Positions 929 through 54,415 of a stretch of 64,000 nt of DNA are shown one piece after another. Below the pieces are notes generated by a model. The model was given only the letters and a program-made list of their open reading frames with translations, had not been told where the DNA came from and searched no databases. Within the stretch, counting starts at the first letter, position 1; every line of letters begins with the position of its first letter. The DNA comes from an uncultured Bacilli bacterium (GTDB taxonomy: Bacteria > Bacillota_I > Bacilli_A > RF39 > UBA660). The stretch is taken from positions 6,528 to 70,527 of the forward strand of contig CANQRX010000001.1 of NCBI GenBank assembly GCA_947626425.1, given 5' to 3'. The position numbers and the translations under genes were made by a program.

Positions 929-1711
929 TTATCTTGGAAAGCCAACGTACATCATTCCATTGCTTTTAATTCCGCCCATTCCATTTGGTCCATATTTTGT
1001 TTTGGAAAGTAAATCCACTAAATCAATTTCTTTATTTCGTTCTGTCATTGACAAAACCGTAGCAATTATGGCAGGATCTAAGCAATGGATATTTATTCTT
1101 TTGGGGCTAGAAGCAAAATTAGCCCCTGCCCTTATCAATTCTTCATAGTTACTTTGACAAGCTCCAGCGATAATGACAAGCTTTTCATGACTTTTTTCAT
1201 ACCGCCTAGCTTCTTTAACAGCCTTAATAAAACTCATGGAATTTCGATAATTGCCACAATCTTTAGGGCTTCCCTTCTTTGGATAATATGCATCATGACC
1301 CGTAATTATAACTATATCTGGTTGATATTCTTTCAAAAGGTTAAAAATTTGTTTAGGAACTTCTTCTTCACTTAACTTTTTTCCAACAACTTTAACTTTA
1401 TTAATTTTATAAAATTTTATACATCTTTTTAAATAATCTTCATCAGCATCAATGTGTAATACTTTCCCAGGCATATAAAAAAATTCTCCCCGATCATTAA
1501 AAACATCTAAATCAAGAATTAAATCTTCATCACATTCTCTATCTTCTTGCACATAAATTTGTAAATCTTCCAACGGGGCATCAGCATATAAACGAACTTG
1601 CATCCCTTTTAAATATGCCGTTTGGCCTTTAATTTTTATAATTTTAAAAACAATATCATGTTGATAACTAATTCTTGTTACAAAATCTCCAACCTTAAAA
1701 GTCATATGCAT
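929..1711 (-). CDS. yabG: sporulation-specific protease YabG
   Basis: N-terminus MTFKVGDFVTRISYQHDIVFKIIKI resembles YabG (MQFQIGDMVARKSYQMDVLFRII); immediately downstream of rsmA; the ORF track's N-terminal extension was trimmed to the internal ATG. Confidence 0.75.
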   Translation of the reverse strand: MHMTFKVGDFVTRISYQHDIVFKIIKIKGQTAYLKGMQVRLYADAPLEDLQIYVQEDRECDEDLILDLDVFNDRGEFFYMPGKVLHIDADEDYLKRCIKFYKINKVKVVGKKLSEEEVPKQIFNLLKEYQPDIVIITGHDAYYPKKGSPKDCGNYRNSMSFIKAVKEARRYEKSHEKLVIIAGACQSNYEELIRAGANFASSPKRINIHCLDPAIIATVLSMTERNKEIDLVDLLSKTKYGPNGMGGIKSNGMMYVGFPR

Positions 1712-1762
1712 CTCCTTATTAAAACATATGAAAAAAGTTAAAAAAAAAGCCATAAATTCCAT

Positions 1763-7541: not shown

Positions 7542-7920
7542 ATTATCCCTCTTTTCTTGCTATAATTTTAACAAATATTATTTTAAAGCTCAAGAGAAGG
7601 AAAAAAATGATTAGCACAGTAGGTCACCCTATGTAACCATCTCTACCATCCTCTTCTTTTACTTAATTTAGGTAACGGCTATTAACCGAAAATATTTCAT
7701 TTCACTCCAAGGTAGAAACATTATGCTATTCTTACTATATTGCAACAACCGATAACTCTCTAATAAGTAAGTCATGTTCTTATCATAGTTTTTATAATTT
7801 TATTTTGAATATTTTTACTTTTAAAGTTGAGGAACCATCATTGGTTAAATCCATAATCATTACCCAAATGATTAACTACTTGCAAAATCTCAAAAGAACT
7901 CACCAAGATTAAAACAAAAA

Positions 7921-8175
7921 TTAATGTTTCAAATACTTCATTCTTTTTCTTAATTCCTTTATCAGACTTTTAATCCTTTTTTTACTATCTAAATCTTTTT
8001 CATCGACTTTTTTTAATAGTAACTCTTCCATATGATTAATCAAGTTTTCCTGATATTCTTCAAATTCTTCTAACATCATATCTTCAATTGAATTTATATT
8101 TAATTTTCCTTCATTAACACTTGATATAAATTTATTTTCTAAATTATTTTGTTCCATACACTCACTCCTAAACAT
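7921..8175 (-). CDS. small hypothetical protein (acidic N-terminal, basic C-terminal; coiled-coil-like)
   Basis: 84 aa ORF; compositional only. Confidence 0.3.
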   Translation of the reverse strand: MFRSECMEQNNLENKFISSVNEGKLNINSIEDMMLEEFEEYQENLINHMEELLLKKVDEKDLDSKKRIKSLIKELRKRMKYLKH

Positions 8176-8242
8176 AATTTTATTTCAAAATTTTTTTAAA
8201 TAATCATTACCCCCATTTGAAATTTTATAAATTGAAACTCTT

Positions 8243-9508
8243 TTATTTTTCATCTTCTAATAACCAATCAATTATATTAATTATTTTTATCCCGTTATAA
8301 TCATTAATTACTAGCTTATCCAAAGTTAATATAATTTTTTGGTAATTATCATTTATACTTTCTAAACTTCGAAGTTCCCTTAATTTAACTTGTTCATCTA
8401 ACAAAGTTTGAGTTACTTGATAATATATTATATTATGAGGATTTTCGGCAATAAAATCAACTTCATATTCACTTAATTTACCGATATTAACCTTGTAGCC
8501 TCTCCTAAGTAATTCTAAATACACAATATTTTCTAATATATGTCCTTCATCTACATTTCTATATCCTAAAATAATGTTTCTAATGCCAATATCGGAAATA
8601 TAATATTTTCCAAGAGTTTTTAAAAGGGCTTTATTTCTAATATCAGCACGGAAAGCTTTATACACGATAAAAGATTTTTCTAACATATTTAAATAATTAT
8701 CAATTGTTTGATGATTAGATTTTACAACTATTTTATTGCTATTTAAATAATTACTTATTTTTACGGAAGAAATAGGACTACCAATATTGTTCACTACATA
8801 TTTTAATATATTTTCTAAAAGTATTGGGTCTTTTATGTTATTCCTATCAATTATATCTTTCTTTACAATAGAATTATATATATCTGTTAAATAAGATAAA
8901 GTTAATTCATCATTATTTTTTATTAAAGTTACAGCTGGTAATCCACCATATTTTAAATATTCTTTAAATTTATCATCCAAATTGTTATTATCATAATTAT
9001 TAAATATTAAATACTCTTTAAATGAAAGAGGATAAATTTTTATTTCTATATACCTTCCTGATAAAAGTGTCGACAATTCCGATGACAAAAGATAAGCATT
9101 AGAACCTGTTATATAAATATCTATATCAAAATCAACCTTAAAAGAATTAATAGCTTTTTCCCAAGATTCAACATTTTGGACCTCATCTAACAATAAATAC
9201 ATTTTGTTGTTATTTATTTTTTCTTTTACATAATTATATAAATCACGATAAGTATTTATATCATCAAACAAGCCAGATTCAAAGTTTATATAAATTATAT
9301 TTTTTTCTTCAACACCATTATTTAATAAGTAATCTTTAAACATCAATAATAATGTCGATTTACCGCACCGTCTAACTCCAGTTATTACCTTTATAAAATC
9401 AGTATCCTTGGCATTAACCATTCGGTTTAAATACGTTTCTCTTATTATCATTTTATCACCTAAAAGCACTATAACATAATCTAAAAAGTTTTGCAAGTTC
9501 ATTAGCAA
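8243..9508 (-). CDS. ATP-binding protein, AAA_14 + DUF4143 family
   Basis: Walker A GVRRCGKST and Walker B LLLDEVQ, with a DUF4143-like C-terminal region; paralog of 22309..23616. Confidence 0.7.
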   Translation of the reverse strand: MLMNLQNFLDYVIVLLGDKMIIRETYLNRMVNAKDTDFIKVITGVRRCGKSTLLLMFKDYLLNNGVEEKNIIYINFESGLFDDINTYRDLYNYVKEKINNNKMYLLLDEVQNVESWEKAINSFKVDFDIDIYITGSNAYLLSSELSTLLSGRYIEIKIYPLSFKEYLIFNNYDNNNLDDKFKEYLKYGGLPAVTLIKNNDELTLSYLTDIYNSIVKKDIIDRNNIKDPILLENILKYVVNNIGSPISSVKISNYLNSNKIVVKSNHQTIDNYLNMLEKSFIVYKAFRADIRNKALLKTLGKYYISDIGIRNIILGYRNVDEGHILENIVYLELLRRGYKVNIGKLSEYEVDFIAENPHNIIYYQVTQTLLDEQVKLRELRSLESINDNYQKIILTLDKLVINDYNGIKIINIIDWLLEDEK

Positions 9509-9555
9509 AACTTTTATTTTTCAAGTTTTTTGCAAACATATTTTAACAACTATCA

Positions 9556-10416
9556 TTATTTTAAATTATCAGTAATTTTAATAAAAAAATCACTACTCCA
9601 TAAATCCAAACTTTTTAAATCCTTTATAAAGGGGATTACATCTTCTTTTGCATCAACATAATTTATTTCTTTAAATTTACTTCTTAATAAATCTTTTAAA
9701 ATATCAAGATTAAAAGAATCACTGTCATTTATATATTTTGAATCAATTAATTTTCTCCTTATTAATTCTAAATTAACATTAACATCATTCGCTAAGAAAA
9801 AGACATAATCATATAAATCTCTTCCCTTTGTTCTTTTTTGCCAATTTCGACATAAAATTGCATGAATTTTCCCCGCAAATAAAGATGATTTATCGTATAT
9901 TCTTAATTGATGAGGACTGGGAAGTAATTTATATTGAATTTCATATGTAGCTCCAAATGGAGGATTAACATCTATTTCAAATTTTACTTTGATATTTTTA
10001 AAAAGATGGTCATATTGTTTATTAACTTCATTCGGAAAAAAGTTTAAAATAAGTTCTAGGGTATCTCCTTTTAAAAAGGCAGAAGAAATATTAGTTTTAT
10101 TATTTTTCTTCTTCGAACTTATCTCTAAATTTAAACCATAAGCTTTTAACTCATTTTCTATATAAACAAAGTATTTACTTAAATCAAAATTTTTATTTGG
10201 TTTAATCAATGCAAAATCTAAATCTTCTGAAAATCTATCCAATTTATAAAAAATTCTTAAAGCTGTTCCTCCATAAAAAGCTGCTTCATTAAAAAAACCA
10301 CCTCGAGATAAACCAAGTAAAACAATTTCTTGGATGATTTCTTTTAAAGCATTTATCTCATCATTTATATTTTTTATTTCATAATGGCTAAGCATCTGGG
10401 TAATTACATCATTCAT
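9556..10416 (-). CDS. abiEii: nucleotidyltransferase toxin AbiEii/AbiGii family (type IV TA toxin)
   Basis: FYGGTALRIFYKLDRFSEDLDFAL is the AbiEii/DUF1814 signature; overlaps the upstream antitoxin gene by 4 bp. Confidence 0.75.
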   Translation of the reverse strand: MNDVITQMLSHYEIKNINDEINALKEIIQEIVLLGLSRGGFFNEAAFYGGTALRIFYKLDRFSEDLDFALIKPNKNFDLSKYFVYIENELKAYGLNLEISSKKKNNKTNISSAFLKGDTLELILNFFPNEVNKQYDHLFKNIKVKFEIDVNPPFGATYEIQYKLLPSPHQLRIYDKSSLFAGKIHAILCRNWQKRTKGRDLYDYVFFLANDVNVNLELIRRKLIDSKYINDSDSFNLDILKDLLRSKFKEINYVDAKEDVIPFIKDLKSLDLWSSDFFIKITDNLK

Positions 10417-11000
10417 GGCAAATTTCTCCTTATATATTTAGATAACAATTTAACATTAGAACAATGATATAATTTACTTAATTTTTCAATTTTATCAAAA
10501 TTTAATTTATTAAATTCAATTTCATCTATTCGCAAGTCATTAAATAACATATTTTGAAGATTTGCATAATTTAGCAAAGGCGATAAAGTATAAAGTTTAT
10601 CACAAAGAGCTTTCTCGGGACTAGCTATTTGATATGAATATTCCCCTTCAATTTTTAATAATATTTCTTCCGGGTAAGCTAAAGAAGGAATATCACGATA
10701 CGTAAAAACACCAAAACTAGTATCAAACCTTTTTTTCTTTTTTTTACTAAAAGTTGCACAAGTAACTGTCATTACTCTTTCCGGAATCAATCCGTAATAT
10801 GATAAAGCATATTCAAAAGAAATATAAGATGGTCCATAAATAATTCCCGCTAAAAGATAACCTGGAGTATTTGGATCGGTTTCATATAATCCATTGACTA
10901 TTTTATATAATTTTCCGGATTTCGCTTCACGAGATAATTTTGTGTTTGTATTCGCGTAATTAGAAAATTTTTCTTTAAAAATATTGCTAGTAATTATCAT
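10413..11000 (-). CDS. abiEi: AbiEi-family antitoxin (type IV TA system)
   Basis: AbiEi-like N-terminal region (KLYKIVNGLYE...PGYLLAGIIYGPSYISFEYALSYYGLIPE); start set at MIITSN with SD AGAGGTGA at 11004-11011; 4-bp overlap with abiEii. Confidence 0.7.
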   Translation of the reverse strand: MIITSNIFKEKFSNYANTNTKLSREAKSGKLYKIVNGLYETDPNTPGYLLAGIIYGPSYISFEYALSYYGLIPERVMTVTCATFSKKKKKRFDTSFGVFTYRDIPSLAYPEEILLKIEGEYSYQIASPEKALCDKLYTLSPLLNYANLQNMLFNDLRIDEIEFNKLNFDKIEKLSKLYHCSNVKLLSKYIRRNLP

Positions 11001-11125
11001 ATTTTCACCTCTTTTTATCATTTTACGATAATTTATGGTGAAAATCAATGAAAAATTAAAATTTTTCAAATAGTTAAAGAGCTAATTATAAGTCTATTTT
11101 GAAACAAAAAATTCATCACTAACCG

Positions 11126-11575
11126 TCACTCAAAAAATTTTAATTGTCCCCTATACATTTGAGTATATTCCTTTCCTTGACTTCTTACATAATTTTGAAT
11201 TTGTTTTTCATTTCCGTACTTACCTACCGTTCCTACAAAATATCCAGCAGTCCACAGATTACCTCCCCATAATTTTTCTTTTACACATGGACATAATCTA
11301 TATATCTCCTTTGCCGTTATACTTTTTATTATTCTTACTATTTTTCGTGGAGCCAATCTTGGTATTGACTGTATCAAAAAATGCAAATAATCGCCATCTG
11401 TTCCTATTTCAACTATATTTATTTCATACCGCTTAGATATTTCTTTACACGTTTGGATTAATACTTTATCAACTGAATCATCAAAAATTACTCTCCTATA
11501 TTTTGCAGGACACACATAGTGATATAATAAAATGCTCACATCATGAGCTAGTACATAATTACTCATTTTTTTCAC
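11126..11575 (-). mobile_element. tnpA: IS200/IS605-family Y1 (HUH) transposase TnpA, solitary (no tnpB)
   Basis: YVLAHDVSILLYHYVCPAKYRRVIF... and C-terminal GYFVGTVG...Y are typical of IS200 TnpA. Confidence 0.7.
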
Positions 11576-22308: not shown

Positions 22309-23616
22309 TCATTTATTTTTAATACAAAAAACAGCATATAAAGGAACTGACTTTATGTTATTTTCCCAACCAAAATTTTTAGTAGATATTCTTATACTAT
22401 ATTTGGGATGATACAGCTTAATATACTCATTTAAACTTTTACTACTCGTTCTTCTTCCACTCTTAACTTCCACAGGAATAATATCCCCATTTATTTTAAT
22501 TAAAAAATCAATTTCGTATTTATCAAAAGTATAATAATACAATTCTTTTAAATTTAAAATAAATTCACAAGCCACATAGTTTTCAGTTAAAACTCCTTTG
22601 TACATTTCATTTTTATCCAATAATATTTCTCCATAATCTAAGTTAGAAAGACTTCTTAATAAACCAACATCACTTAAATAAAGTTTAAATTTGCTAATAT
22701 CTGCGAAAGCTTTTAAAGGCGATTCATTTTTTTGCACTAAATCGCATTTTAAAATCATATTACTGGCTAATAACCACTCTAAACTACTTTCATATCTTAC
22801 TTTTCGAGCATCTTTATCAACTAAACTATATTTAAAAACATTATTTTCCCGCGCTAACTCTCTCGGCATTGCCTTGTATATTTGAGCATTTTTTATTCCT
22901 TCACTATTTTCAGTATATTTACTCATATCAGCAAGATAAGAAGTTATAATTTGTTCTTGTAACTCAAAATTAACATGTGCGATGTGGCAATCATTTTCAA
23001 TAAAATTTTTAATAACCGCCGGCATTCCTCCTAGTACTAAATATTTTTTATACAAATCAAGAGCTTTGTCATGAATTGCAGTCATTAAAGCTTCGTTAGA
23101 TTCATAATGCTTTTTAATTTCTTCAATTAATTTTTCTTCACCTAAAGCTTTTAAAAATTCCTCAAAATCCATTGGATATAAATATTTAATAACAACTTTA
23201 CCTACCGGAAATGAAGAATGAAACCGATTGATTTTGACCCCTAATAAAGAACCAGCACAAATAATTTTATATGGTTTGGAACTTTCACAAAAATATTTTA
23301 AAGACGAAATAGCTCTTTCACTTACTTGGATTTCATCCAAAAAAATTATTCCGTTATCAGGTTGAAAAACTGTATTTTTTATAATTTCAATTTTTTCAAT
23401 AATAGTATCAGGATCAATAGTCTTTTCAAATACTTTAGCAATATCATCTTCTTTATCTAAATTAATATAAATGTAATTACTAAAATTCTTTTTACAAAAT
23501 TCATCAATTATATAAGTCTTACCAGTTTGTTTTGCTCCAGCTAACATCAAAGGCATTTTATAATCAATTTTCCATTTTTCCAAAACCTCTTCAATTTTTC
23601 GATACATGAAATTCAC
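22309..23616 (-). CDS. ATP-binding protein, AAA_14 + DUF4143 family (paralog)
   Basis: Walker A GAKQTGKT and Walker B IIFLDEIQ; same architecture as 8243..9508. Confidence 0.7.
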   Translation of the reverse strand: MNFMYRKIEEVLEKWKIDYKMPLMLAGAKQTGKTYIIDEFCKKNFSNYIYINLDKEDDIAKVFEKTIDPDTIIEKIEIIKNTVFQPDNGIIFLDEIQVSERAISSLKYFCESSKPYKIICAGSLLGVKINRFHSSFPVGKVVIKYLYPMDFEEFLKALGEEKLIEEIKKHYESNEALMTAIHDKALDLYKKYLVLGGMPAVIKNFIENDCHIAHVNFELQEQIITSYLADMSKYTENSEGIKNAQIYKAMPRELARENNVFKYSLVDKDARKVRYESSLEWLLASNMILKCDLVQKNESPLKAFADISKFKLYLSDVGLLRSLSNLDYGEILLDKNEMYKGVLTENYVACEFILNLKELYYYTFDKYEIDFLIKINGDIIPVEVKSGRRTSSKSLNEYIKLYHPKYSIRISTKNFGWENNIKSVPLYAVFCIKNK

Positions 23617-26654: not shown

Positions 26655-27444
26655 AATGTACCTCTATCTGACTATAAGGAATTGATAAATTCTCTTCATC
26701 ATATGTTTTTTTAATAATTCGTAAAGCTCTTCTTTTAATATCCCATTGTTCACTTTGCTTACAATAAATTAAAATCGAATAAGTTATTGAAGAACCTTCA
26801 AAAGCATCAATTCCTAAATATTTCGTGTCTGCATAAACATTGGGAATTTTTTTAATCTGATCTAATATTTTTTTAATTACGGTTTCTACTCGTTCCACGC
26901 TTTCTTCATATCTTGTCGGAATGTCAATTTTAACACCCGCGCGTTCTTGACTTATATTTATAACTGACGTAACACTGTGGTTCGGTAAAACCATAACTTC
27001 ACCATTAAAACGACGAATTTTTGTACTTTTTAAACTTAGTTCAATAACTTCGCCCGTAAATCCGTTAATTGTAACCATATCCCCAATAACATAATAATTA
27101 TCAGTTATAATCGCTATTCCACTAATAAAATCTTGGGCTGTTTCTTGCAAAGCTAAACCTAAAAAAGCTCCAGCAATACCTAATGAAGCCACAATACTTC
27201 TTGTATCAACGCCATATAAATTCAAAATAAAAACAATCATTATCACAATGATAAAAAATTTAAAAATATTCATTACCAATTCAATAATCGTTGTTCTTTT
27301 CTTTTGTTCATAGGTATTAATTCCATGATTAAAAACTTTATCAACAAATGTTTCAGCAATTTTATAAATAATATAACCTACTACAACTACTAAAAAAGGT
27401 CCCATTACTTTTCTACTAAAAAGAAAATTCATTATTTTATCCAT
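26632..27444 (-). CDS. mscS: small-conductance mechanosensitive channel (MscS family)
   Basis: TM3 pore-helix motif IVASLGIAGAFLGLALQETAQDFISG followed by a beta domain. Confidence 0.8.
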   Translation of the reverse strand: MDKIMNFLFSRKVMGPFLVVVVGYIIYKIAETFVDKVFNHGINTYEQKKRTTIIELVMNIFKFFIIVIMIVFILNLYGVDTRSIVASLGIAGAFLGLALQETAQDFISGIAIITDNYYVIGDMVTINGFTGEVIELSLKSTKIRRFNGEVMVLPNHSVTSVINISQERAGVKIDIPTRYEESVERVETVIKKILDQIKKIPNVYADTKYLGIDAFEGSSITYSILIYCKQSEQWDIKRRALRIIKKTYDEENLSIPYSQIEVHYGANEEI

Positions 27445-28334
27445 TAAACGCCCTCAATTCTAACTCCTAGCATTTCCAAAATAGCCCCTAAATCTTCTTC
27501 TTTGGTATAAGGAATTTCAATTTTTTTATCAGTTACTTTTACTTTAACCCCTAATTTTTCTCTTAATAAACTTTCATAAATTGAATTTCTAATATTTTGA
27601 GTTTTAGTAGCTCGTTCTTGTTTTTGTCGTTTTGGCAAATTTTCTTCATTTATTAAATTTTCTAAGCCTCGGACACTCATTGATTCATTAATAATTCTTT
27701 CCGCTAATTCATTTATTTTAGCTTCATCTTTAATTTTACTTAAAGCTCTCGCATGTCCCATACTAATTTTTTTATCTAAAACATATTGTTTTGTTATTTC
27801 TGGTAAAGTTAAAAGGCCTAAAATATTTGTAACATGACTTCGACTTTTTCCAAATTTTTTTGCAAAATCTTCCTGAGTCATACTTGCATAATGAATAATA
27901 TTTTGAATAGCTGTAGCTTCTTCAATAGGATTCAAATCTTCTCTTTGGATATTTTCTAATAACGCCACTTCCATCATTTGTTGATCATTATAGTCTTTAA
28001 CAATCGCCTGAATTTCCGTTAACCCAGCTAAACGAGCAGCTTTACATCTTCTTTCACCAGCTACTAATTCATATCCTTTAATACTTTTTTTAACTAAAAC
28101 TGGTTCAATGATACCATGTTCCTTAATCGAATCTGATAATTCTCTTAATGTATCTTCATCAAATTTTTTTCGAGGTTGATACGGATTACTTCGAATCTCT
28201 TCTAATTTAATACTTTTTACTCCCAAATCACTAGATTCAGAGTGTTCTTCTTTTGTATAATTTTCAAAATTGATAACTTCGTTTGAAAACAACTGTTCTA
28301 AACCTTTTCCTAATGCTTTTCTTTTAGTCTCCAT
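27444..28334 (-). CDS. parB: chromosome partitioning protein ParB/Spo0J
   Basis: ParB box GERRCKAARLAGL and HTH; the ORF contains no parS (no CACGTG). Confidence 0.9.
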   Translation of the reverse strand: METKRKALGKGLEQLFSNEVINFENYTKEEHSESSDLGVKSIKLEEIRSNPYQPRKKFDEDTLRELSDSIKEHGIIEPVLVKKSIKGYELVAGERRCKAARLAGLTEIQAIVKDYNDQQMMEVALLENIQREDLNPIEEATAIQNIIHYASMTQEDFAKKFGKSRSHVTNILGLLTLPEITKQYVLDKKISMGHARALSKIKDEAKINELAERIINESMSVRGLENLINEENLPKRQKQERATKTQNIRNSIYESLLREKLGVKVKVTDKKIEIPYTKEEDLGAILEMLGVRIEGV

Positions 28335-29112
28335 TTCTACTAATCACTTCCTTTGCTAAATTTTCATAGGCAAGGGTTGCTCTTGAAGTAGGATCATAAT
28401 CGCTAATAGGCTTTCCATGACTAGGTGCCTCGACTAATCTTACTAATCTCGGAATGATTGTATTAAACACTTTTGATTTAAAACATTTTCTTACTTCTTC
28501 AATAATTTCTAAACCAATATTTGTTCTTCCATCTAACATTGTTAATAGAACCCCTTCTATTCTTAATTCTGTATTCATTTTATTTTGAACTAAAATTATG
28601 GAATTTAATAATTGGGCAATTCCCTCTAATGCAAAATATTCACATTGAACAGGAATAATAACTGAATTACTTGCCACCAAAGCATTCATGGTGGAAATAC
28701 CTAAACTTGGTTGACAATCTATAATAATATAATCAAACTTATCTTTTACTTCATTTAAAGCCTCTTTTAATTGTTCATTTTGTTTAAAAGAATTATCTTC
28801 AAGCATTTTTTTAACAAATTCTACATCAACCCCAGCCAAATTAATTGTCGCAGGAATTATTGACAAATTTTTAAATTTTGTTTTTATTATTGCCTGTTCG
28901 ATTGGACAAGACTTCGTTATTACATCATATATATCATGTTCAAAATCGTTGGTATTCAATCCTAACCCATTTGAAGCATTACCTTGAGGGTCTAAATCAA
29001 TAAGTAAAGTTTTTTTTCCTTCTTTTCCTAAAGCTGCTGCAAGATTAATACTTGTTGTCGTTTTTCCTACTCCACCTTTTTGATTTACTAATGAAATAAT
29101 CTTTGCCATAAT
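28324..29112 (-). CDS. parA: chromosome partitioning ATPase ParA/Soj
   Basis: Deviant Walker A MAKIISLVNQKGGVGKTT. Confidence 0.9.
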   Translation of the reverse strand: MMAKIISLVNQKGGVGKTTTSINLAAALGKEGKKTLLIDLDPQGNASNGLGLNTNDFEHDIYDVITKSCPIEQAIIKTKFKNLSIIPATINLAGVDVEFVKKMLEDNSFKQNEQLKEALNEVKDKFDYIIIDCQPSLGISTMNALVASNSVIIPVQCEYFALEGIAQLLNSIILVQNKMNTELRIEGVLLTMLDGRTNIGLEIIEEVRKCFKSKVFNTIIPRLVRLVEAPSHGKPISDYDPTSRATLAYENLAKEVISRNGD

Positions 29113-29265
29113 ACCACCTTTTAATCTCCTTAACACTAAAGACATTTTAACACGTATAATAAAATAAGTAAATTAAAGAACTTAATTTTTTTAAACACTT
29201 CCTAGCTATTCCTTGATTTAATCAACAAAAAATTTTTTATTTTTTTTCTTCAAAAAAACATTTCT

Positions 29266-33645: not shown

Positions 33646-34146
33646 TTAAAGCTCAATCTTCCTAACAAATAACATGGTCAAAAATTTCAAAAATTTATTT
33701 TCCCATCCATCGAATGCTTTATCTTTCATTAAAATAATCATTCCTAAACAATCAGTCGAAACAATAATTGGTTTCATTAAAAAATAGCCTGTTAAACCTA
33801 AAAAACTTTCTTCTTGCTTAGAAGCATATTCTTCTCGTTCATTCATTAAATGGTCAATTTCTGATGAAAGATTATTATCATAATTTTTAACACTCGCCGA
33901 AACGACTTTATCGCGATCAACAATTATAGCATTTATTCCTAAACAATCCCCAATTTCTGTAACTAAAACATCACCTAATTTTTTTAAATCTAAAATTTTC
34001 GAATACTTCTGTAAATAAACACCATTTTCATCAACAAAAATTTCTAAATTTTCGCCATCTTTAATACCTAAATTTCTTCTTATTTCTTTTGGCAAAACAA
34101 TTCTTCCTAACTCGTCAATTTTTCTTACAACACCAGTTTGTTTCAT
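33646..34146 (-). CDS. spoVT: stage V sporulation protein T (AbrB-type DNA-binding + GAF domain)
   Basis: MKQTGVVRKIDELGRIVLPKEIRRNLGI swapped-hairpin AbrB domain; ~170 aa; directly upstream of mfd as in Bacillus. Confidence 0.8.
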   Translation of the reverse strand: MKQTGVVRKIDELGRIVLPKEIRRNLGIKDGENLEIFVDENGVYLQKYSKILDLKKLGDVLVTEIGDCLGINAIIVDRDKVVSASVKNYDNNLSSEIDHLMNEREEYASKQEESFLGLTGYFLMKPIIVSTDCLGMIILMKDKAFDGWENKFLKFLTMLFVRKIEL

Positions 34147-34196
34147 AAAAAAAGGTTCACTCCTATCCACCTTTAGTCTGCGTAAACCTTTTAAAA

Positions 34197-43893: not shown

Positions 43894-43909
43894 TGTTCCA
43901 CGTGGAACA
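43894..43909. promoter_or_regulatory. parS: parS site 1 TGTTCCACGTGGAACA (perfect palindrome, 16/16 to TGTTNCACGTGNAACA)
   Basis: Seen in sequence. Confidence 0.8.
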
Positions 43910-44010
43910 TCAATTTTTTTAATCGCTTACCATTTTACTTTCGTAATTTAATAAAATATTTTTTAAATTTTGCTTTATTATTTATCAATAAATTTTATGT
44001 TATTAACATA

Positions 44011-44026
44011 TGTTTCACGTGAAACA
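44011..44026. promoter_or_regulatory. parS: parS site 2 TGTTTCACGTGAAACA (canonical, perfect)
   Basis: Seen in sequence. Confidence 0.85.
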
Positions 44027-44162
44027 TAGATTAACTTTTATTTTTTAAAATTTTTATTTATTAACTTCTACTTTAAATGTTATATAACAATTTTATATTT
44101 ACTCTATTGGATTTTAATTTATTTACATAATTCTCTGATAAGTTATCAATTACATTTCAAAT

Positions 44163-44178
44163 TGTTTCACGTGGAACT
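44163..44178. promoter_or_regulatory. parS: parS-like site 3 TGTTTCACGTGGAACT (1 mismatch)
   Basis: Seen in sequence. Confidence 0.6.
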
Positions 44179-44410
44179 TTTTTTAAATTATCAACAACAT
44201 AAATATATAAAAATATACACAATTGATCAGATTATTTCTGAATCAACTACCTTATCATATCTTATTTTTAAACCTTTATATTTTGAATTAACTTGCATTA
44301 CTATTCATATTTAAAAATTTTTCATTGCAAAATTATTAATCACTAATTATTTTTGTTACACTGTTATCTTTTTATAATTATTTGATAAATTATTGCATTA
44401 AAATTCCCAA

Positions 44411-44426
44411 CGTTTCACGTGAAACA
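44411..44426. promoter_or_regulatory. parS: parS-like site 4 CGTTTCACGTGAAACA (1 mismatch)
   Basis: Seen in sequence. Confidence 0.6.
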
Positions 44427-44554
44427 TTGTTTTGTTTATAATAAAAAATTGTAACTTAATTTAAAACTATTTTTTAGTTAACTTCATTTTTTTATAATAC
44501 ATTTTTACTATCAATTATTAAAATTTCACAAACTTACTTTCAACTGTTCTTTAA

Positions 44555-44570
44555 TGTTCCACGTGGAACA
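44555..44570. promoter_or_regulatory. parS: parS site 5 TGTTCCACGTGGAACA (perfect)
   Basis: Seen in sequence. Confidence 0.8.
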
Positions 44571-44672
44571 TCAATTTTTTTAATCATTTACTATTTTACT
44601 TTCGTAATTTATAATAAGATATTTTTTAATTTTTGCTTTGTATATATCAATTAGTTTTTTGTTATTAACATA

Positions 44673-44688
44673 TGTTTCACGTGAAACA
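44673..44688. promoter_or_regulatory. parS: parS site 6 TGTTTCACGTGAAACA (perfect)
   Basis: Seen in sequence. Confidence 0.85.
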
Positions 44689-44837
44689 TAAACTTAACTT
44701 TTATTTTTTTAATTGTTAATTTTTAATTTATTTTCATCAATTTTTTGTGATTTTGAAAAAATTAAATTAGTTAAGATAATAAAATAATTTTGAAAATTGT
44801 TTAATATTTATTTTCATCTAAATTTTGAGCAAACTTT

Positions 44838-44950
44838 TGGAAATAGGCAATGGTATGATAGGCTTAGATTTGCCAGTTGGCTTAAATGCTAACTGGCTCA
44901 AGCCATTAAATTCATACTATTGGGTTCCTGTTTCCAAAAGGAAATTAAAA
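44838..44950. ncRNA. candidate structured small RNA / foreign GC-rich segment inside the insertion in repeat unit 2 (strand unknown)
   Basis: Locally GC-rich. Perfect 10-bp stem (one G-U) GCCAGTTGGC-TTAAAT-GCTAACTGGC (44872-44897), flanked by AATGG/CCATT and GGCTTAG/CTCAAGCC pairings. A second hairpin TTTCC-AAAA-GGAAA (44931-44944) lies before an A/T-rich tail. Confidence 0.25.
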
Positions 44951-45181
44951 TTTAGTGAAAATAATCTTTAAATATTAGTTATTATAATTTTTAAATATTT
45001 TGTTTTTAAGTTTTTTTTAGACTAATTTATTTTTTAAATCGTTGGTTATAATATCATTAAAATTAACATTTAATTTTTAATTATTAACTTTCTACTTTAA
45101 ATATATAACAATTTTATATTTACTCTATTGGATTTTAATTTATTTACATAATTCTTAGATAAGTTTAATTACATTTCAAAT

Positions 45182-45197
45182 TGTTTCACGTGGAACT
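45182..45197. promoter_or_regulatory. parS: parS-like site 7 TGTTTCACGTGGAACT (1 mismatch)
   Basis: Seen in sequence. Confidence 0.6.
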
Positions 45198-45420
45198 TTT
45201 TAAATTATTAACATAAATCTATAAAAAAACTAATCAGATTTATATATATTTGCTGAATCCACTATCTTTTCATATTATTTTTAAACCTTATATTTTGAAT
45301 TAACTTGCATTACTATTCATTTAAAGTTTTTTTATTGCAAAATACTTTATTATTTTTTTTTAAACACATTATAATTTTAATGGTTGAAATTCATAATTAA
45401 AATATACTAAAATCTCCCAA

Positions 45421-45436
45421 CGTTTCACATGAAACA
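45421..45436. promoter_or_regulatory. degenerate parS-like site 8 CGTTTCACATGAAACA (2 mismatches, central CACGTG lost)
   Basis: Seen in sequence. Confidence 0.35.
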
Positions 45437-45563
45437 TCGTTTTGGTTATAATAAAAGTATATATAATTATAATTTAAAACTACTTCTTTAGTTTATTCAT
45501 TTATTTTTATCTATATTTTTATATCATCTATTCTTTAAAAATTTTCTTTCAACTATTCTTCAA

Positions 45564-45579
45564 TGTTCCACGTGGAACA
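45564..45579. promoter_or_regulatory. parS: parS site 9 TGTTCCACGTGGAACA (perfect)
   Basis: Seen in sequence. Confidence 0.8.
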
Positions 45580-45680
45580 TCAATTTTTTTTAATCGCTTA
45601 CCATTTTACTTTCGTAATTTAACAAAATATTTTCTAAATTTTGCTTTATATTTATCAATAAATTTTATGTTATTAACATA

Positions 45681-45696
45681 TGTTTCACGTGAAACA
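45681..45696. promoter_or_regulatory. parS: parS site 10 TGTTTCACGTGAAACA (perfect)
   Basis: Seen in sequence. Confidence 0.85.
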
Positions 45697-45826
45697 TAGA
45701 TTAACTTTTATTTTTTAAATTTTAATTATTAACGCTTTAGATGCTATATAACTATCTTATAATTACTTTATTGGATCCTAATATGTTTTATAATTTCTTT
45801 AATAAGTTATCAATTACATTTTAGAT

Positions 45827-45842
45827 TGTTTTACGTGGAACT
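45827..45842. promoter_or_regulatory. degenerate parS-like site 11 TGTTTTACGTGGAACT (2 mismatches)
   Basis: Seen in sequence. Confidence 0.35.
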
Positions 45843-46074
45843 TTTTTTAAATTATCAATAACATAAATATATAAAAATATACACAATTGATCAGATTATT
45901 TCTGAATCAACTACCTTATCATATCTTATTTTTAAACCTTTATATTTTGAATTAACTTGCATTACTATTCATATTTAAAAATTTTTCATTGCAAAATTAT
46001 TAATCACTAATTATTTTTGTTACACTGTTATCTTTTTATAATTATTTGATAAATTATTGCATTAAAATTCCCAA

Positions 46075-46090
46075 CGTTTCACGTGAAACA
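46075..46090. promoter_or_regulatory. parS: parS-like site 12 CGTTTCACGTGAAACA (1 mismatch)
   Basis: Seen in sequence. Confidence 0.6.
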
Positions 46091-46218
46091 TTGTTTTGTT
46101 TATAATAAAAAATTGTAACTTAATTTAAAACTATTTTTTAGTTAACTTCATTTTTTTATAATACATTTTTACTATCAATTATTAAAATTTCACAAACTTA
46201 CTTTCAACTGTTCTTTAA

Positions 46219-46234
46219 TGTTCCACGTGGAACA
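46219..46234. promoter_or_regulatory. parS: parS site 13 TGTTCCACGTGGAACA (perfect)
   Basis: Seen in sequence. Confidence 0.8.
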
Positions 46235-46336
46235 TCAATTTTTTTAATCATTTACTATTTTACTTTCGTAATTTATAATAAGATATTTTTTAATTTTTGC
46301 TTTGTATATATCAATTAGTTTTTTGTTATTAACATA

Positions 46337-46352
46337 TGTTTCACGTGAAACA
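46337..46352. promoter_or_regulatory. parS: parS site 14 TGTTTCACGTGAAACA (perfect)
   Basis: Seen in sequence. Confidence 0.85.
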
Positions 46353-46488
46353 TAAACTTAACTTTTATTTTTTTAATATTTAATTATTAACTTTCTACTT
46401 TAAATATATAACAATTTTATATTTACTCTATTGGATCTTTTAATTTATTTACATAATTCTTTGATAAGTTATCAATTACATTTTAAAT

Positions 46489-46504
46489 TGTTTCACGTGG
46501 AACT
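46489..46504. promoter_or_regulatory. parS: parS-like site 15 TGTTTCACGTGGAACT (1 mismatch)
   Basis: Seen in sequence. Confidence 0.6.
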
Positions 46505-46731
46505 TTCTTAAATATCAACTAAATCTATAAAAAAAAACTAACCCGATATATTTGCTGAATCCCAACTACCTCCTCTTATCTTATTTTTAAACCTTTATAT
46601 TTTGAATCAACTTGCATTACTATCCATTTAAAAGTTTTTCATTGCAAAATATTTTATTGTTTACTTTTTTAAAGCACAATATAATTTTAATGTTTAAAAT
46701 TCATAATTAAATTTATACTAAAATCTCCCAA

Positions 46732-46747
46732 CGTTTCACGTGAAACA
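46732..46747. promoter_or_regulatory. parS: parS-like site 16 CGTTTCACGTGAAACA (1 mismatch)
   Basis: Seen in sequence. Confidence 0.6.
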
Positions 46748-46875
46748 TCGTTTTGGTTATAATAAAAAATTTGTAAATATTAATTTAAAAACCATTTTAC
46801 TTCATTTCTTTATAATATTTTTTATACCATCAATTTCATTAAAAACTTTATAAACCACTTCTAATTATTATTCAA

Positions 46876-46891
46876 TGTTCCACGTGGAACA
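46876..46891. promoter_or_regulatory. parS: parS site 17 TGTTCCACGTGGAACA (perfect)
   Basis: Seen in sequence. Confidence 0.8.
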
Positions 46892-46992
46892 TCAATTTTT
46901 TTATCACTTACTATTTTGCTTTCGTAATTTAATAAAATACTTTTTAAATTTTGCTTTATATATATCAATTAGTTTTTTGTTATTAACTTTTA

Positions 46993-47008
46993 TGTTTCAC
47001 GTGAAACA
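46993..47008. promoter_or_regulatory. parS: parS site 18 TGTTTCACGTGAAACA (perfect), 19 bp from the gyrA stop
   Basis: Seen in sequence. Confidence 0.85.
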
Positions 47009-47026: not shown

Positions 47027-49489
47027 CTATTCCTCTTCATTATCATTTGTTTCTTCTTCAGTATTTTTTTCAATATGTTCAACTATACTTATAGTCGATA
47101 CTGATTGATTTTCCTTTAAATTAATTAATCGAACCCCTTGAGTTACTCTACCCAACGTTGATACTTGATTTAAAGGTAACCTAATAGTCATACCAGTATT
47201 TGTAATAACCACTACATCGGCATTATCTTCTACTAATTTAAACGATGCTATTGACCCATTTTTCTCTGTAATATTCAATGCTTTAACGCCCTTACTGCCT
47301 CGACTTGTTACTCGATAGTCACGAACATTTGTTTGCTTACCGTAACCCTTCTCAGTGACTATTAAAATCTTAGCATCATCATTTGCAATCTCAGCACCAA
47401 TACAATCATTACCATCTAAATTAATTCCTCGAACACCACTAGCCGTACGTCCCATTACTCGGATTTCGGTTTCTTTAAATTTAACCATTCGACCCGAACT
47501 TGAACCCAATAACACCATATCATCGCCTGTGGTTTTCCGAACACCAATTAACTCATCATTTTCTCTTAAAGTAATACAAACCTTACCATTAGTTCTAATT
47601 GAATCAAATTCGCTTATAGAAGTTTTCTTAACAATACCTTTCTTCGTTGCAAACAACAAATACTTACTGCTTTCTTCACGACTAATTTTAACTAAAGAAT
47701 TAATCGACTCATCCTTCTCAATCTGCAATAAATTAATAACAGGTAACCCTTTAGATTGACGACTAAATTCCGGAATTTCATAGCCTTTTAAACGATAAAC
47801 CTTACCTTTATTCGTAAAGAATAAAATATAATCATGCGTTGATAAATTAAGCAAATGACTAACAAAATCCTCTTCATTAGTATTCATACCCTTAACACCA
47901 ACACCACCACGATTTTGCGATTTAAAGGCATCAACACTCATCCGTTTAATATAACCCTTGCTAGTCAAAGCAATCATAATATTTTCCTCTGGTATCAAAG
48001 ATTCATCTTCAATATACTCAATAGCCGTCATATCAATATCAGTTCTACGTTCATCAGCATATTTTCTCTTAATCTCCAACAACTCTTCTCGAATAATGGC
48101 TAATACAAGCTCATCACTAGCTAAAATCGCTTTTAAGCGGTCAATTTCCTTCAACAAGTCATTTAATTCATTTTCAATCTTTTCTCGCTCTAAACCTGTT
48201 AAACGACGTAATCTCATCTCCAAAATAGCTTCCGCTTGAATTTCATCTAATCCAAAACGTTCCATCAACGTATTCTTAGCAATTACATCCGTTTCACTAC
48301 TACGAATTATGTTAATAACTTCATCAATATGATCTAAAGCTATTTTAAAACCTTCCAAAATATGAACACGATCTTGAGCTTTCTTCAAATCAAATCTTGT
48401 TCGCCTAATAATAATTTCCTTTTGATAATCAATATATTTAGAAATAATACTTTTTAAAGGTAAAATTACTGGTTGTTTATTATCCAACATTAAGAAATTT
48501 ATCCCATAAGAAACTTGTAATTGAGTATGCTTATATAAATTATTTAAAACAACATTAGCATTGGCCTCTTTTTTCAAATAAATAACTACCCGAACAGGAT
48601 GCTCTAAATTCGACTCTTCATGTAAATCAGCTATACCATCAATAATTTTATCTCGAACTAATTGCCCTATTCTCGTTTGAAATTCCGCCTTATTTACTTG
48701 ATAAGGAAGCTCTGTAACGATTATCCGTGAACGACCATTACTAGTTTCCTCAATCTCTACTTTACCACGGATTGTAATTGTTCCTTTGCCGGTATCATAG
48801 GCTTTTCTAATCCCACTGTTACCTAAAATTGAAGCTCCAGTTGGAAAATCAGGACCTTTTATATACTGCATTAACCCATCCGTATCAATATCCGGATTAT
48901 CAATATAAGCAACACATCCATCTATAACCTCACCCAAATTATGAGGTGGAATATTCGTAGCCATTCCAACAGCAATCCCCATTGTTCCATTAACTAAAAT
49001 ATTAGGGAACCTACTTGGTAAAATAATCGGTTCTTTTTCCGTTTCATCAAAATTATCTCGAAAATCAATAGTATCTTTATTAATATCTCGAACCATTTCT
49101 AAGGCTAGTTTTGATAAACGAGCCTCCGTATAACGCATGGCAGCTGCCCCATCACCATCTAAATTACCAAAGTTTCCATGACCATCGACTAACATATGTC
49201 GAAAGCTAAAAGGCTGAGCCATTCGCACCATAGCATCATAAATCGAACTATCACCGTGTGGATGATATTTACCCATGACATCCCCGACAATTCTCGCACT
49301 TTTCCGATGAGGTTTATCAGGTGTATAACCAGATTCATACATTGAATACAAAATCCGACGATGAACAGGCTTTAAACCATCTCGTAAATCAGGTAAAGCT
49401 CTTGCGACTATAACACTCATTGAATAATTAGTAAAACTATCTTTAACTTCTTTAACAATATTATTCTCTATAATCTTATCCATAAACAA
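47027..49489 (-). CDS. gyrA: DNA gyrase subunit A
   Basis: 820 aa; active-site region ...[11 protein letters not shown]..., GyrA-box beta-pinwheel CTD and acidic tail. Confidence 0.95.
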
Positions 49490-49495
49490 CCCTCC

Positions 49496-52511
<3,016 letters not shown>

Positions 52512-52595
52512 ATTGTTATTGCCCCTTAATTTTGTCATACAGAAAAATAATAGGTATATTAATACTCCTATACCTATTACAATTATATCACAAAT

Positions 52596-53063
52596 CTAGT
52601 TTTCATTAAAAGCCTTTTTACTCTTTTTTCGACTTCTTAGAGCACTTTCTAATCGCGCCGAACGTAACACTTGATTATCCAAAGAACCATATGATAAATC
52701 TAAAGATAACTTCGTACCATTTTTAAATTGAATTTCAATACTATTATCTTTTTTAACGTATTTATCAATATGTCCTAAACAAATCCAGCTATTTTCTTTA
52801 TTTCGAAGCGATGACGTAGGAAAAAAAATAATTTCGCGGGATTCTTCAACAATAATTGGTGCTTTATAACAAACCCCTATCATTGATTCTGTACCTTTTA
52901 AACGACCTTCTAAACTACTTCCAAAATACTCACAGCTTTCTTCTAAAATTTTATTAGCATTTTGTTCAATATAAAAACTTTGATCTTCTTCATAAACTTT
53001 AGATAACTTATCACTACAAGCCACAACAGCCAAAGTAGATTCGTTAATTTCATAACTTTTCAT
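52596..53063 (-). CDS. comK: ComK-family competence transcription factor homolog
   Basis: Aligns block-by-block with B. subtilis ComK: SYEINESTLAV / SYEVNGATIAV; SCEYFGSSLEGRLKGT / SCRFFGSSYAGRKAGT; FFPTSSLRNKENSWICLGHI / LFPTLSSTRPQCGWISHVHV; FKNGTKLSLDLSYGSLDNQVLRSARL / FSNGKTMELPISYNSFENQVYRTAWL. Confidence 0.7.
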   Translation of the reverse strand: MKSYEINESTLAVVACSDKLSKVYEEDQSFYIEQNANKILEESCEYFGSSLEGRLKGTESMIGVCYKAPIIVEESREIIFFPTSSLRNKENSWICLGHIDKYVKKDNSIEIQFKNGTKLSLDLSYGSLDNQVLRSARLESALRSRKKSKKAFNEN

Positions 53064-53145
53064 TATTTCACCCCCCCAAATGTATGAAATTGTCTTTAAT
53101 ATAGCACAATCATTTTAAAAAAATTGTCGAAAAAAAACATCCTTG

Positions 53146-54270
53146 TTAGAATGTTTTAATTGGTAATATTAATTGAATTAATGACTCATCTGATAAAGAT
53201 TTAATTATCAATGGTTTAACATCATTATTAGCTAGTATTACGATGTCATCATCATGAATTGTTTTTAAAGCTTCAAGCATAAATTTGGCACTGAAAGAAA
53301 TTTCAATACTTGCTTTTTCATCCGTATCAATTGTTAACACTTCTTCTGTCTTCCCAATTTCTGAAGCATAAGAGTTAATAACCATTTGTTTATGGTCTAC
53401 TTTCATTTTAATAATGTTTTTATCTTTTCCTTGGGTTAATAAGGCAGCTCTATCCACAGCGCCTCCAAAATCGTTTCTTTTTAATTGAATAATTATTTCA
53501 AATTCAGTTGGAATTAAATTCGAAGTATTAGGATAAGTACCAGATAAAATATTAGATTGAAATTTAATATTTTTGTATTCAAATAACACCCGATTATTAA
53601 AAACGTGAATTGATACAGGATCATCATCAACAATAATTCTTTCTAATTCGATAATATTTTTTCCTGGAACAACAATGTTTATATCATTTTGAACAGGAGT
53701 AGATAACTTAACATTTTTTTTCGCTAAACGATAAGAATCAGTGGCAATACACTCTAGTAAATCACCAGTTATTTTAAAATTTATTCCTGTTAGAATTGGC
53801 CGTAATTCTTGATTGGAAATTGCAAAAGATGTTTGGTTGATAATTGATTTTAATAAATCACCATTAATAACAATCGGTTCTTTATGTAAAGAAAGTTTAA
53901 TATTTGGATAATCACTTGGATCTAAACAATTCAAATCATATTGGTTAAAGTCTGAATAAATTTTAATTTTCAAGTTATCCACCAATTCAAAATTAATTAA
54001 ATCACTAGGCATTTTTCGAATAATATCTAAAATATATTTACTATTAATAATAATTGTTCCCGTTTCTTCAATTTTTTCAATGCTTTCTTTATCAATAAAA
54101 GTTTCAATAGTTAGTTCACTATCACTAGCTAATAAAGTTAAGCCTTTTTCCGTTAAATCAAACTTAATACCATTTAAAACTGGTATAACATTCTTAGTTG
54201 AAACTCCTTTAATTACATTTGTTAAATTTTCTAATAATATTCCTTTTTCGATTGTAAATTTCATTTCCAT
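53146..54270 (-). CDS. dnaN: DNA polymerase III beta sliding clamp
   Basis: 374 aa, three-domain clamp; directly downstream of dnaA. Confidence 0.95.
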   Translation of the reverse strand: MEMKFTIEKGILLENLTNVIKGVSTKNVIPVLNGIKFDLTEKGLTLLASDSELTIETFIDKESIEKIEETGTIIINSKYILDIIRKMPSDLINFELVDNLKIKIYSDFNQYDLNCLDPSDYPNIKLSLHKEPIVINGDLLKSIINQTSFAISNQELRPILTGINFKITGDLLECIATDSYRLAKKNVKLSTPVQNDINIVVPGKNIIELERIIVDDDPVSIHVFNNRVLFEYKNIKFQSNILSGTYPNTSNLIPTEFEIIIQLKRNDFGGAVDRAALLTQGKDKNIIKMKVDHKQMVINSYASEIGKTEEVLTIDTDEKASIEISFSAKFMLEALKTIHDDDIVILANNDVKPLIIKSLSDESLIQLILPIKTF

Positions 54271-54277
54271 TCCTTCT

Positions 54278-54334
54278 TTCTTTTTTATTTATTATATATA
54301 TTAATAATAATAACAATGTTGATAATGTGGATAA
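54278..54334. promoter_or_regulatory. oriC: oriC unwinding module: AT-rich DUE (54278-54300) - (TAA)4 DnaA-trio-like repeat (54302-54313) - tandem DnaA boxes TGTTGATAA (54317-54325) and TGTGGATAA (54326-54334)
   Basis: Arrangement mirrors the Bacillus basal unwinding system (box6-box7, trinucleotide repeats, AT-rich 27-mer) in the dnaA-dnaN spacer. Confidence 0.6.
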
Positions 54335-54375
54335 CTTTTAACTTTCCTTTATTTATGGGCTTTAACAGGCCAAAG

Positions 54376-54415
54376 TTATCCACAAAGTTATCCACTTTTT
54401 ATAAAGTTATCCACA
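54376..54415. promoter_or_regulatory. oriC: DnaA-box cluster downstream of dnaA (incC-like)
   Basis: TTATCCACA at 54376-54384 and 54407-54415; TTATCCACT at 54388-54396; all in the same orientation with ~11-20 bp spacing. Confidence 0.8.

Follow-up and report, generated by a model that had tools for sequence, protein, structure and literature searches.

Between dnaN and recF, in a 64-kb stretch of contig CANQRX010000001.1 (the window, meaning the whole stretch analyzed), lies a small gene encoding a protein of the ComK family of competence transcription factors. A sequence-only reading of this DNA had placed an open reading frame (ORF) of 155 aa here and listed the conserved blocks of its product. 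We recovered the exact ORF, and the blocks SYE-N-T-AV, FGSS..GR.KGT, FFPT.S, and NG.K..L..SY.S..NQV.R were present in the translation and kept across 24 homologues. Family membership, also proposed in that reading, was borne out by profile and pairwise comparison. The Pfam hidden Markov model (HMM) for ComK, PF06338, matched with an E value of 4.1e-41 and 140.7 bits (cutoff 22.3). The match spanned protein residues 2-146 and model positions 2-151 of 152, passing the gathering threshold over the whole domain. Reciprocal similarity was assessed against P0121, a database protein named 'competence transcription factor ComK' that is 97% identical to a Bacillus subtilis ComK sequence. BLASTP gave 35% identity over 149 aa (E 2e-31), a significant similarity to a ComK of the B. 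subtilis group. With the same query, a search of NCBIfam returned zero matches and a sequence search of the PDB no meaningful match.

A structural model was obtained with AlphaFold2 (AF2) from 24 homologues, with a predicted local distance difference test score (pLDDT) of 92.7 and a predicted template modeling score (pTM) of 0.86. The modeled fold is rich in beta structure and has, besides two short helices, a long helix at the C terminus that ends in a short basic tail, RSRKKSKKAFNEN. When the model was compared with the PDB by Foldseek, the only neighbors were LytTR DNA-binding domains (AgrA, ComE). These matches were weak (E 1e-2 to 0.3, template modeling scores 0.4-0.6, identity 9-13%), and none reached E 1e-3. 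We treat the resemblance as a lead only and do not claim membership in the LytTR family. Together, the model and this weak similarity appear compatible with DNA binding by the 155-aa protein.

The protein belongs to a populous group. It has 825 close homologues, and a profile search of 1.84 billion representative proteins returned 1607 clusters (50% identity) at E 1e-3 or better, with short forms dominating the top of the list. Members of the short subfamily measure about 145-160 aa. In a neighbor-joining tree, the long Bacillus-type ComKs (185-216 aa) formed one clade, and the window protein fell in a tight clade (at least 51% identity) among many short lineages. The family assignment as such is already known, as annotation pipelines for metagenome-assembled genomes (MAGs) call these proteins 'competence protein ComK'. 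Our literature search found no description of the short subfamily, of its fixation in the origin cluster, of a Spo0A-box promoter, or of a hairpin in the recF leader.

The ORF is a real, strongly conserved ComK-fold protein. Its small size and unexpected position are all that would suggest that it is degenerating, arose by chance, or entered this genome alone by a recent horizontal insertion. Set against these are the full-length HMM match, the 825 close homologues, 51-71% identity across 80 species with the gene consistently in the same slot, and a promoter and ribosome-binding site (RBS) conserved across species. We consider such an origin to have a negligible probability, and chance ORF, pseudogene, remnant, and recent insertion were all ruled out by the HMM match, the homologues, and the fixed slot.

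The features of the locus are collected in Table 1. The sequence-only reading had located the gene between dnaN and recF at the replication origin, and the flanking genes, GC skew, and DnaA boxes all agree with that position. A scan for the DnaA box (TTATCCACA) found 68 matches where 23 were expected, concentrated at 55.9-56.2 kb and in the dnaA-dnaN spacer. The GC skew switches at about 56 kb, and rpmH-rnpA-yidC-jag-mnmE-mnmG-rsmG diverge on the opposite strand. Given the skew switch and the DnaA-box clusters, the ComK-like gene lies about 1.3 kb from a bipartite, Bacillus-type oriC.

Table 1. Positions of the ComK-like gene, its flanking elements, and neighboring genes within the window
Feature	Position	Strand	Basis or remark
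Short ComK-family coding sequence, 155 aa	52596..53063	-	ATG start; Pfam PF06338; BLASTP to Bacillus ComK
RBS GGGGGGGTGA, 5 nt before the ATG	53068..53077	-	Sequence; strong Shine-Dalgarno
Extended -10-like element TGCTATATT	53098..53106	-	Sequence and cross-species comparison
TTCGACA (the Spo0A box TGTCGAA in reverse complement), following a T-run	53125..53131	-	Exact match; about -40 to -34 of the inferred promoter
Weak hairpin (AACAT...ATGTT) and T-run just after the dnaN stop	53131..53155	-	Sequence; tentative, uncalled by terminator scan
Predicted promoter with a consensus extended -10, TGTGATATAAT, immediately past the comK stop codon, reading into recF-gyrB-gyrA	52582..52592	-	Sequence, conservation
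Conserved hairpin AATAGGTATA-GGAGTATTAA-TATACCTATT, followed by a U-run (52541-52548)	52549..52578	-	Conservation, pairing, folding
dnaN, upstream neighbor	53146..54270	-	DNA_pol3_beta domains
recF, downstream neighbor, 368 aa	51405..52511	-	SMC_N/AAA_23; ATG start as called in identical ENA contigs (longer ORF to 52538)
DnaA-box cluster, dnaA-dnaN spacer, one half of bipartite oriC	54317..54415	.	DnaA-box scan
dnaA	54417-55808	-	
gyrB	49496-51415	-	
gyrA	47027-49489	-	
YabG peptidase gene	929-1762		Pfam annotation
SpoVT gene	33646-34170		Pfam annotation

To follow the gene across relatives, we used two scans. The first was alignment-based with one genome per GTDB species; 315 species genomes encoded a relative of the 155-aa protein, and 80 of these matching loci were fetched. 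The second drew on metagenome contigs carrying distant short ComK-like proteins, 36-50% identical to the window protein, and likewise comprised 80 loci. As far as the contigs reach, the order dnaA-dnaN-comK-recF-gyrB-gyrA was found in 79 of the 80 GTDB loci. The same dnaN-comK-recF order occurred in 74 of the 80 distant loci, where GC content was 19-31% and DnaA and RecF were 44-60% and 32-59% identical to those of the window. Median identities of the ComK-like protein and RecF were 57 and 57 in the GTDB set and 49 and 47 in the metagenome set, suggesting that the former is about as conserved as the latter. Hundreds of uncultured, low-GC gut Bacilli species thus share the fixed slot between dnaN and recF, and the gene, which the sequence-only reading had called inserted, is not peculiar to one genome. 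An S4-like yaaA/rlbA gene was absent from the slot here and in all 173 related loci examined. That gene occupies the dnaN-recF slot on the B. subtilis map; it shares the position with the ComK-like gene, its fold and function being unrelated. We found no published description of ComK synteny with dnaN and recF, nor of competence in RF39 or RFN20.

A single clade of seven loci departs from this arrangement, with the gene beside (pcrA-)ligA. The clade is nested among origin-linked sequences, which points to one relocation. Its members are L090, L118, L130, L139, L159, and L162, with L156 as a tentative seventh. These copies have a different upstream leader, with a -10, AGAGGA, and a hairpin, and lack TTCGACA. 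In L090 and L118 the ComK-like gene is followed by cca-dnaD-nth, again a replication and repair neighborhood. Two distant loci (L143, L149) read dnaN-comK-gyrB-gyrA, the ComK-like gene having been kept though recF left the cluster. In a minority of loci an extra gene stands between dnaN and comK, encoding a dCMP-deaminase-type protein, membrane proteins, or an XRE-type helix-turn-helix protein. The deaminase gene (161-162 aa; Pfam dCMP_cyt_deam_1, MafB19-deam) occurs in L001-L006, L021, L034, and L056, and its product is similar to dCMP deaminases, for instance ComEB from the comE operon of B. subtilis.

Cross-species comparison of the region upstream of the gene brought out a predicted promoter and, within it, a Spo0A-type box. 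The upstream consensus is TTTTTTCGACAAA. Closest to the start codon, an (A)GGGGGTGA-like RBS is kept at the same position in related loci, with gGGGg in the consensus. Further upstream stands TTCGACA, of which the copy in Table 1 is the only intergenic one within the 64 kb. Among the 79 species loci, 60 carry this motif no more than 110 nt upstream of the gene, and in 55 its position relative to the ATG is -64 to -70. In 55 of the 60 motif-bearing loci, TAnnnT follows the motif at a distance of exactly 21 nt, accompanied by TGn in 46. The -10 hexamers are poor versions of TATAAT, with which they agree at 3-5 of 6 positions. A generic promoter scan, finding no -35 element at 16-18 nt, missed this promoter.

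With a background of 0.108 occurrences per kb per strand, the position of the motif upstream of comK represents an enrichment of about 250-fold. The density there is 2.97 per kb, on the forward strand only, followed by 1.08 per kb in the dnaA-dnaN spacer and at most 0.18 per kb elsewhere. Of the 74 distant loci, 24 had the exact TTCGACA, 51 had the CGACA core, and 16 had copies in tandem; in these lineages the box often forms an array, (T)TCGACAAAAT, with a period of 10-11 bp. We also considered whether TTCGACA is a DnaA box. This was ruled out, as the motif differs at two core positions and perfect TTATCCACA boxes occur nearby.

The core of the 0A box is TGTCGAA with A/T flanks, which is recognized alike by the Spo0A proteins of Bacillus and Clostridioides difficile (PMC3485338). 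Phosphorylated Spo0A (Spo0A~P) binds the B. subtilis comK promoter (PcomK) directly, at both activating and repressing sites (PMC3297582). For the window gene, a predicted 0A box was found in the promoter at a position fixed across species, as would be expected of a member of the Spo0A regulon.

Three further observations concern the upstream region. In 16 loci of a subclade (L028, L035, L036, L041-L043, L047, L050, L053, L060, L068, L070, L077, L102, L116, and L167), TTCGACA stands between the DnaA boxes of the dnaA-dnaN spacer, within a conserved ...TTATCCACgACAAAATTCGACAA...; the arrays in comK promoters are made of this repeat unit too. About 6 nt after the comK -10, around +1 (window about 53085-53092, reverse strand), (A)CAATTT(T)C is kept even in loci without TTCGACA. 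Finally, the hairpin and T-run after dnaN may tentatively be read as a terminator of dnaA-dnaN, its T-run merging into the flank of the 0A box; a clearer hairpin-plus-T-run occurs at the same place in related loci, e.g. L007 and L016-L020.

The spacer between comK and recF is likewise structured. The predicted recF promoter TGTGATATAAT was kept in most related loci and absent from some, including L007, L024-L026, L029, L063, and L068; some relatives keep the hairpin without this promoter. The hairpin core, AGGTATAGGAGTA, was nearly invariant across 49 distinct sequences. In register, 83% of positions paired, compared with 25-47% when the strands were slid, and the outer pairs covary (AU 20 / UA 9; AU/GC). 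The predicted folding energy was -20.6 kcal/mol (z -2.8). The hairpin occurs once in the window and is conserved across species whose DnaA proteins are only 50-78% identical; hairpin and U-run are followed by the recF RBS. A terminator scan missed the hairpin, which has only two G-C pairs and emerged from the cross-species comparison, and Rfam had no family for the spacers at the gathering or a permissive threshold. From its sequence and position, the hairpin may be a comK terminator, a 5' leader or attenuator of recF(-gyrBA), or both, or else a protein-binding site. With its T-run, box, extended -10, RBS, and hairpin, the ComK-like gene forms a transcription-unit-like module between the dnaA-dnaN operon and recF-gyrB-gyrA.

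Compared with ComK, the protein is short at both ends. The alignment to P0121 starts after the first 8 residues of ComK and stops at residue 157 of 192, leaving the last ~35 residues without a counterpart. In B. subtilis ComK, the MecA degron FMLYPK...GERY is C-terminal (PMC8138137). Removal of 25 C-terminal residues from the B. subtilis protein abolishes comG activation while DNA binding persists, and ComK2 of Bacillus cereus, which naturally lacks 22 C-terminal residues, lowers comG expression (PMC3128618). The C-terminal region that holds the MecA/ClpCP degron and serves activation in canonical ComK is thus absent from the 155-aa protein. Without this tail, the protein would escape restraint by MecA/ClpCP in the manner of Bacillus, and activation may differ.

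In our preferred explanation, which we hold tentatively and with somewhat less than even confidence, the gene encodes the local version of a minimal ComK-family regulator that binds DNA, is linked to the origin throughout the lineage, and is gated by Spo0A. The conserved TTCGACA would be a site for Spo0A~P, 21 nt from a weak extended -10 and tandem in distant lineages, and the gene would be switched as cells enter stationary phase or sporulation. In spoIIE/spoIIG-type promoters, which are activated by Spo0A, a -35-like hexamer overlaps a 0A box and is displaced to 21 or 22 bp from the -10. We favor activation by Spo0A~P, since the layout of the comK promoter resembles that of spoIIE/spoIIG and its -10 elements are weak; the alternative is repression of the kind exerted at site R1 of B. 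subtilis PcomK. Once made, the ComK-like protein would bind DNA and set a K-state-like program of DNA-transaction genes (uptake, recombination, and repair). Its control would be mainly transcriptional, because the C-terminal tail addressed by MecA/ClpCP, and with it the degron, is absent.

Known systems provide partial precedents for this arrangement. The window promoter shares with the spoIIE/spoIIG type and with sites A1-3/R1-2 of PcomK a perfect 0A-box core, here overlapping a -35-like TCGACA at 21 nt from a weak -10, and the possibility of tandem boxes about one helical turn apart. With B. subtilis ComK, the window protein has in common the domain over its whole length, 35% identity, and the conserved blocks, and both are encoded by small, separately promoted genes with a Spo0A-type box in the promoter region. 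They differ in length (155 vs 192 aa), in both termini, and in the promoter, which in the window has no ComK boxes. Their genomic settings also differ. The window gene is fixed between dnaN and recF beside oriC and conserved at a housekeeping level, whereas B. subtilis comK lies far from the origin. B. cereus ComK2 shares the absence of the ComK C-terminal region. However, it coexists with a full-length ComK1, and neither an origin-linked context nor a TTCGACA promoter has been described for it.

Several observations weigh against the preferred explanation, and its weakest step is the output. The region required for activation in B. subtilis is missing, and the truncated ComK2 of B. cereus lowers comG expression. 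A search across the window for paired ComK boxes (AAAA-N5-TTTT pairs with spacers of 8, 18, and 31 nt) gave counts of 0, 3, and 0 where about 1 was expected, with none near the gene. By Pfam annotation of 40 ORFs, none of comG, comE, comF, dprA, ssbB, and spo0A lies within the 64 kb. A global regulator would not usually stay in unbroken synteny with genes of replication and repair, which suggests that the role is local or tied to the origin, and even the relocated clade beside pcrA-ligA sits among replication and repair genes. Some lineages that carry the motif have a GC content of only 19-23% and may be non-sporulating. The TTCGACA repeats could themselves be sites for the ComK-like protein or for another factor.

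A different view takes the protein as a local regulator or nucleoid-associated protein directed at the origin or at repair, without control of competence. It would bind TTCGACA(AAAT) repeats in its own promoter, giving autoregulation, and in some lineages in oriC, and would tune replication initiation, recF-gyrBA expression, or both. Much in the comparative data suits this view: the near-absolute dnaN/recF synteny over very deep divergence, the return of the sole relocated clade to replication and repair genes (pcrA-ligA / comK / cca-dnaD-nth), conservation at the level of RecF, the lost activation and degron tail, and the lack of any ComK-box signal in the window. LytTR proteins bind direct repeats, and LytTR domains are the weak structural neighbors of the model; TTCGACA occurs in 10-11-bp tandem arrays and between the DnaA boxes of 16 dnaA-dnaN spacers. 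We nevertheless judge this view unlikely. The motif matches the well-established Spo0A box at 7 of 7 positions, and Spo0A binds PcomK in B. subtilis. Obligatory autoregulation through the motif is at odds with the ligA-linked copies, which lack TTCGACA upstream, every characterized ComK-family protein regulates competence genes, and synteny alone does not show function. Spo0A itself is said, in work attributed to Castilla-Llorente 2006 and Boonstra 2013, to bind oriC in B. subtilis. A broader form of the same idea, which we regard as doubtful, would make the short ComK-like proteins as a whole origin-linked chromosome factors of reduced-genome gut Bacilli and not competence regulators. They would bind TTCGACA(AAAT) repeats in their own promoter and, in some lineages, between the DnaA boxes of oriC, and so make the initiation of replication, or the expression of recF and gyrase, depend on the Spo0A/transition-state decision. 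If true, this would be a new function of the ComK fold in a conserved module, oriC - dnaA - dnaN - comK - recF - gyrBA - parS array.

At the other extreme, the gene could encode a full equivalent of the B. subtilis master regulator, activating itself and comG/comE/comF through ComK boxes, with a speculative link to replication through origin-proximal gene dosage. The sequence-only reading had likened the protein to this regulator; the likeness stands for the family domain, which is present in full, and fails for canonical status. The MAG annotation 'competence protein ComK' leans toward such an equivalent, as does the control of B. subtilis comK by Spo0A, to which the box upstream of the window gene has a parallel (PMC3297582). 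The absence of the C-terminal activation and MecA-degron region speaks against it, as does a promoter without the paired ComK boxes through which canonical comK is autoregulated. The ComK-box search that the sequence-only reading had suggested thus turned out negative within the window, for enrichment as for the promoter. The late competence genes were also not observed within the 64 kb searched, and we think it unlikely that the protein is a canonical ComK. Another possibility follows from the proposal made for ComK2: a variant that binds DNA and does not activate, and that would repress or antagonize. Like ComK2, the window protein is truncated at the C terminus, with more residues missing; comG expression falls under ComK2, and B. 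subtilis ComK without its 25 C-terminal residues binds DNA and loses activation (PMC3128618). However, no longer ComK paralogue that it might antagonize is known in these genomes, which were read at the locus only, and most family members in metagenomes are short forms, which therefore probably have an autonomous function. An antagonist therefore seems improbable to us.

The host carries sporulation genes, in keeping with the low-GC spore-former of the sequence-only reading. GC content across the window is about 28%, and the genes for YabG peptidase and SpoVT indicate a sporulation heritage. That reading had also placed the host outside the Bacilli pattern of ComK distribution, a claim at variance with the titled homologues, all of which are uncultured gut MAGs labeled Bacilli, Tenericutes, Erysipelotrichaceae, or Mycoplasma sp. 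A few homologue records were evidently mislabeled Muribaculaceae, no cultured organism appeared among the homologues, and the identical 155-aa protein was found on ENA metagenome contigs. The host group is consistent with RF39, RFN20, and ML615J-28, orders of GTDB class Bacilli with reduced genomes, in which some lineages are reported to sporulate and others not (PMC10868615). Most of these orders are reported to retain spo0A, which is recorded for RF39, for ML615J-28, and for part of RFN20 (PMC10868615). The gene order of the window mirrors the B. subtilis origin region, with tadA, signal recognition particle (SRP) RNA, dnaX, ybaB, recR, holB, a yaaT-like gene, pth, mfd, spoVT, metG, tatD, ksgA, and yabG.

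Other parts of the window held features of separate interest. Between gyrA and tadA/SRP RNA lies a 3.1-kb stretch (43894-47008) of about 18% GC in which no ORF reaches 80 aa; it consists of about five tandem repeats, each 655-660 bp long. It contains 16 parS-type palindromes (TGTTNCACGTGNAACA, at most one mismatch) where 0.02 were expected, with none elsewhere in the window. Clusters of parS occur directly downstream of gyrA in every related locus that reaches that far (L001-L003, L007, L011, L012, L143, and L149), and the stretch looks like a conserved, centromere-like parS array beside the origin. The soj/spo0J genes are at 27444-29145. A probable mobile or defense island (5892-11575) encodes a predicted AAA-ATPase that carries a PD-(D/E)XK nuclease domain (5892-7541), an ATPase of the AAA_14/DUF4143 type (8243-9508), and a toxin of the AbiEii type (9556-10416), upstream of which is an unassigned ORF (10413-11069). 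The island also holds a gene for an IS200-like Y1 transposase (11126-11575), and another AAA_14/DUF4143 gene is found at 22309-23616.

ComK is the textbook bistable master regulator and has been studied almost only in Bacillus and close relatives, yet a large, uncharacterized short subfamily dominates the family in metagenomes. Across a whole radiation of uncultured gut Bacilli, a short ComK is locked into the replication-origin cluster, with an apparently Spo0A-controlled promoter and without the proteolytic control element. The automatic label 'competence protein ComK' in these MAGs should accordingly be read with caution, as it is not evidence of natural transformation. If the protein acts on oriC or on recF-gyrase expression, it would represent a new role for the ComK fold. 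In organisms that still resist cultivation, the locus offers a testable link between a sporulation or transition-state switch, programs of DNA transactions, and the origin region.

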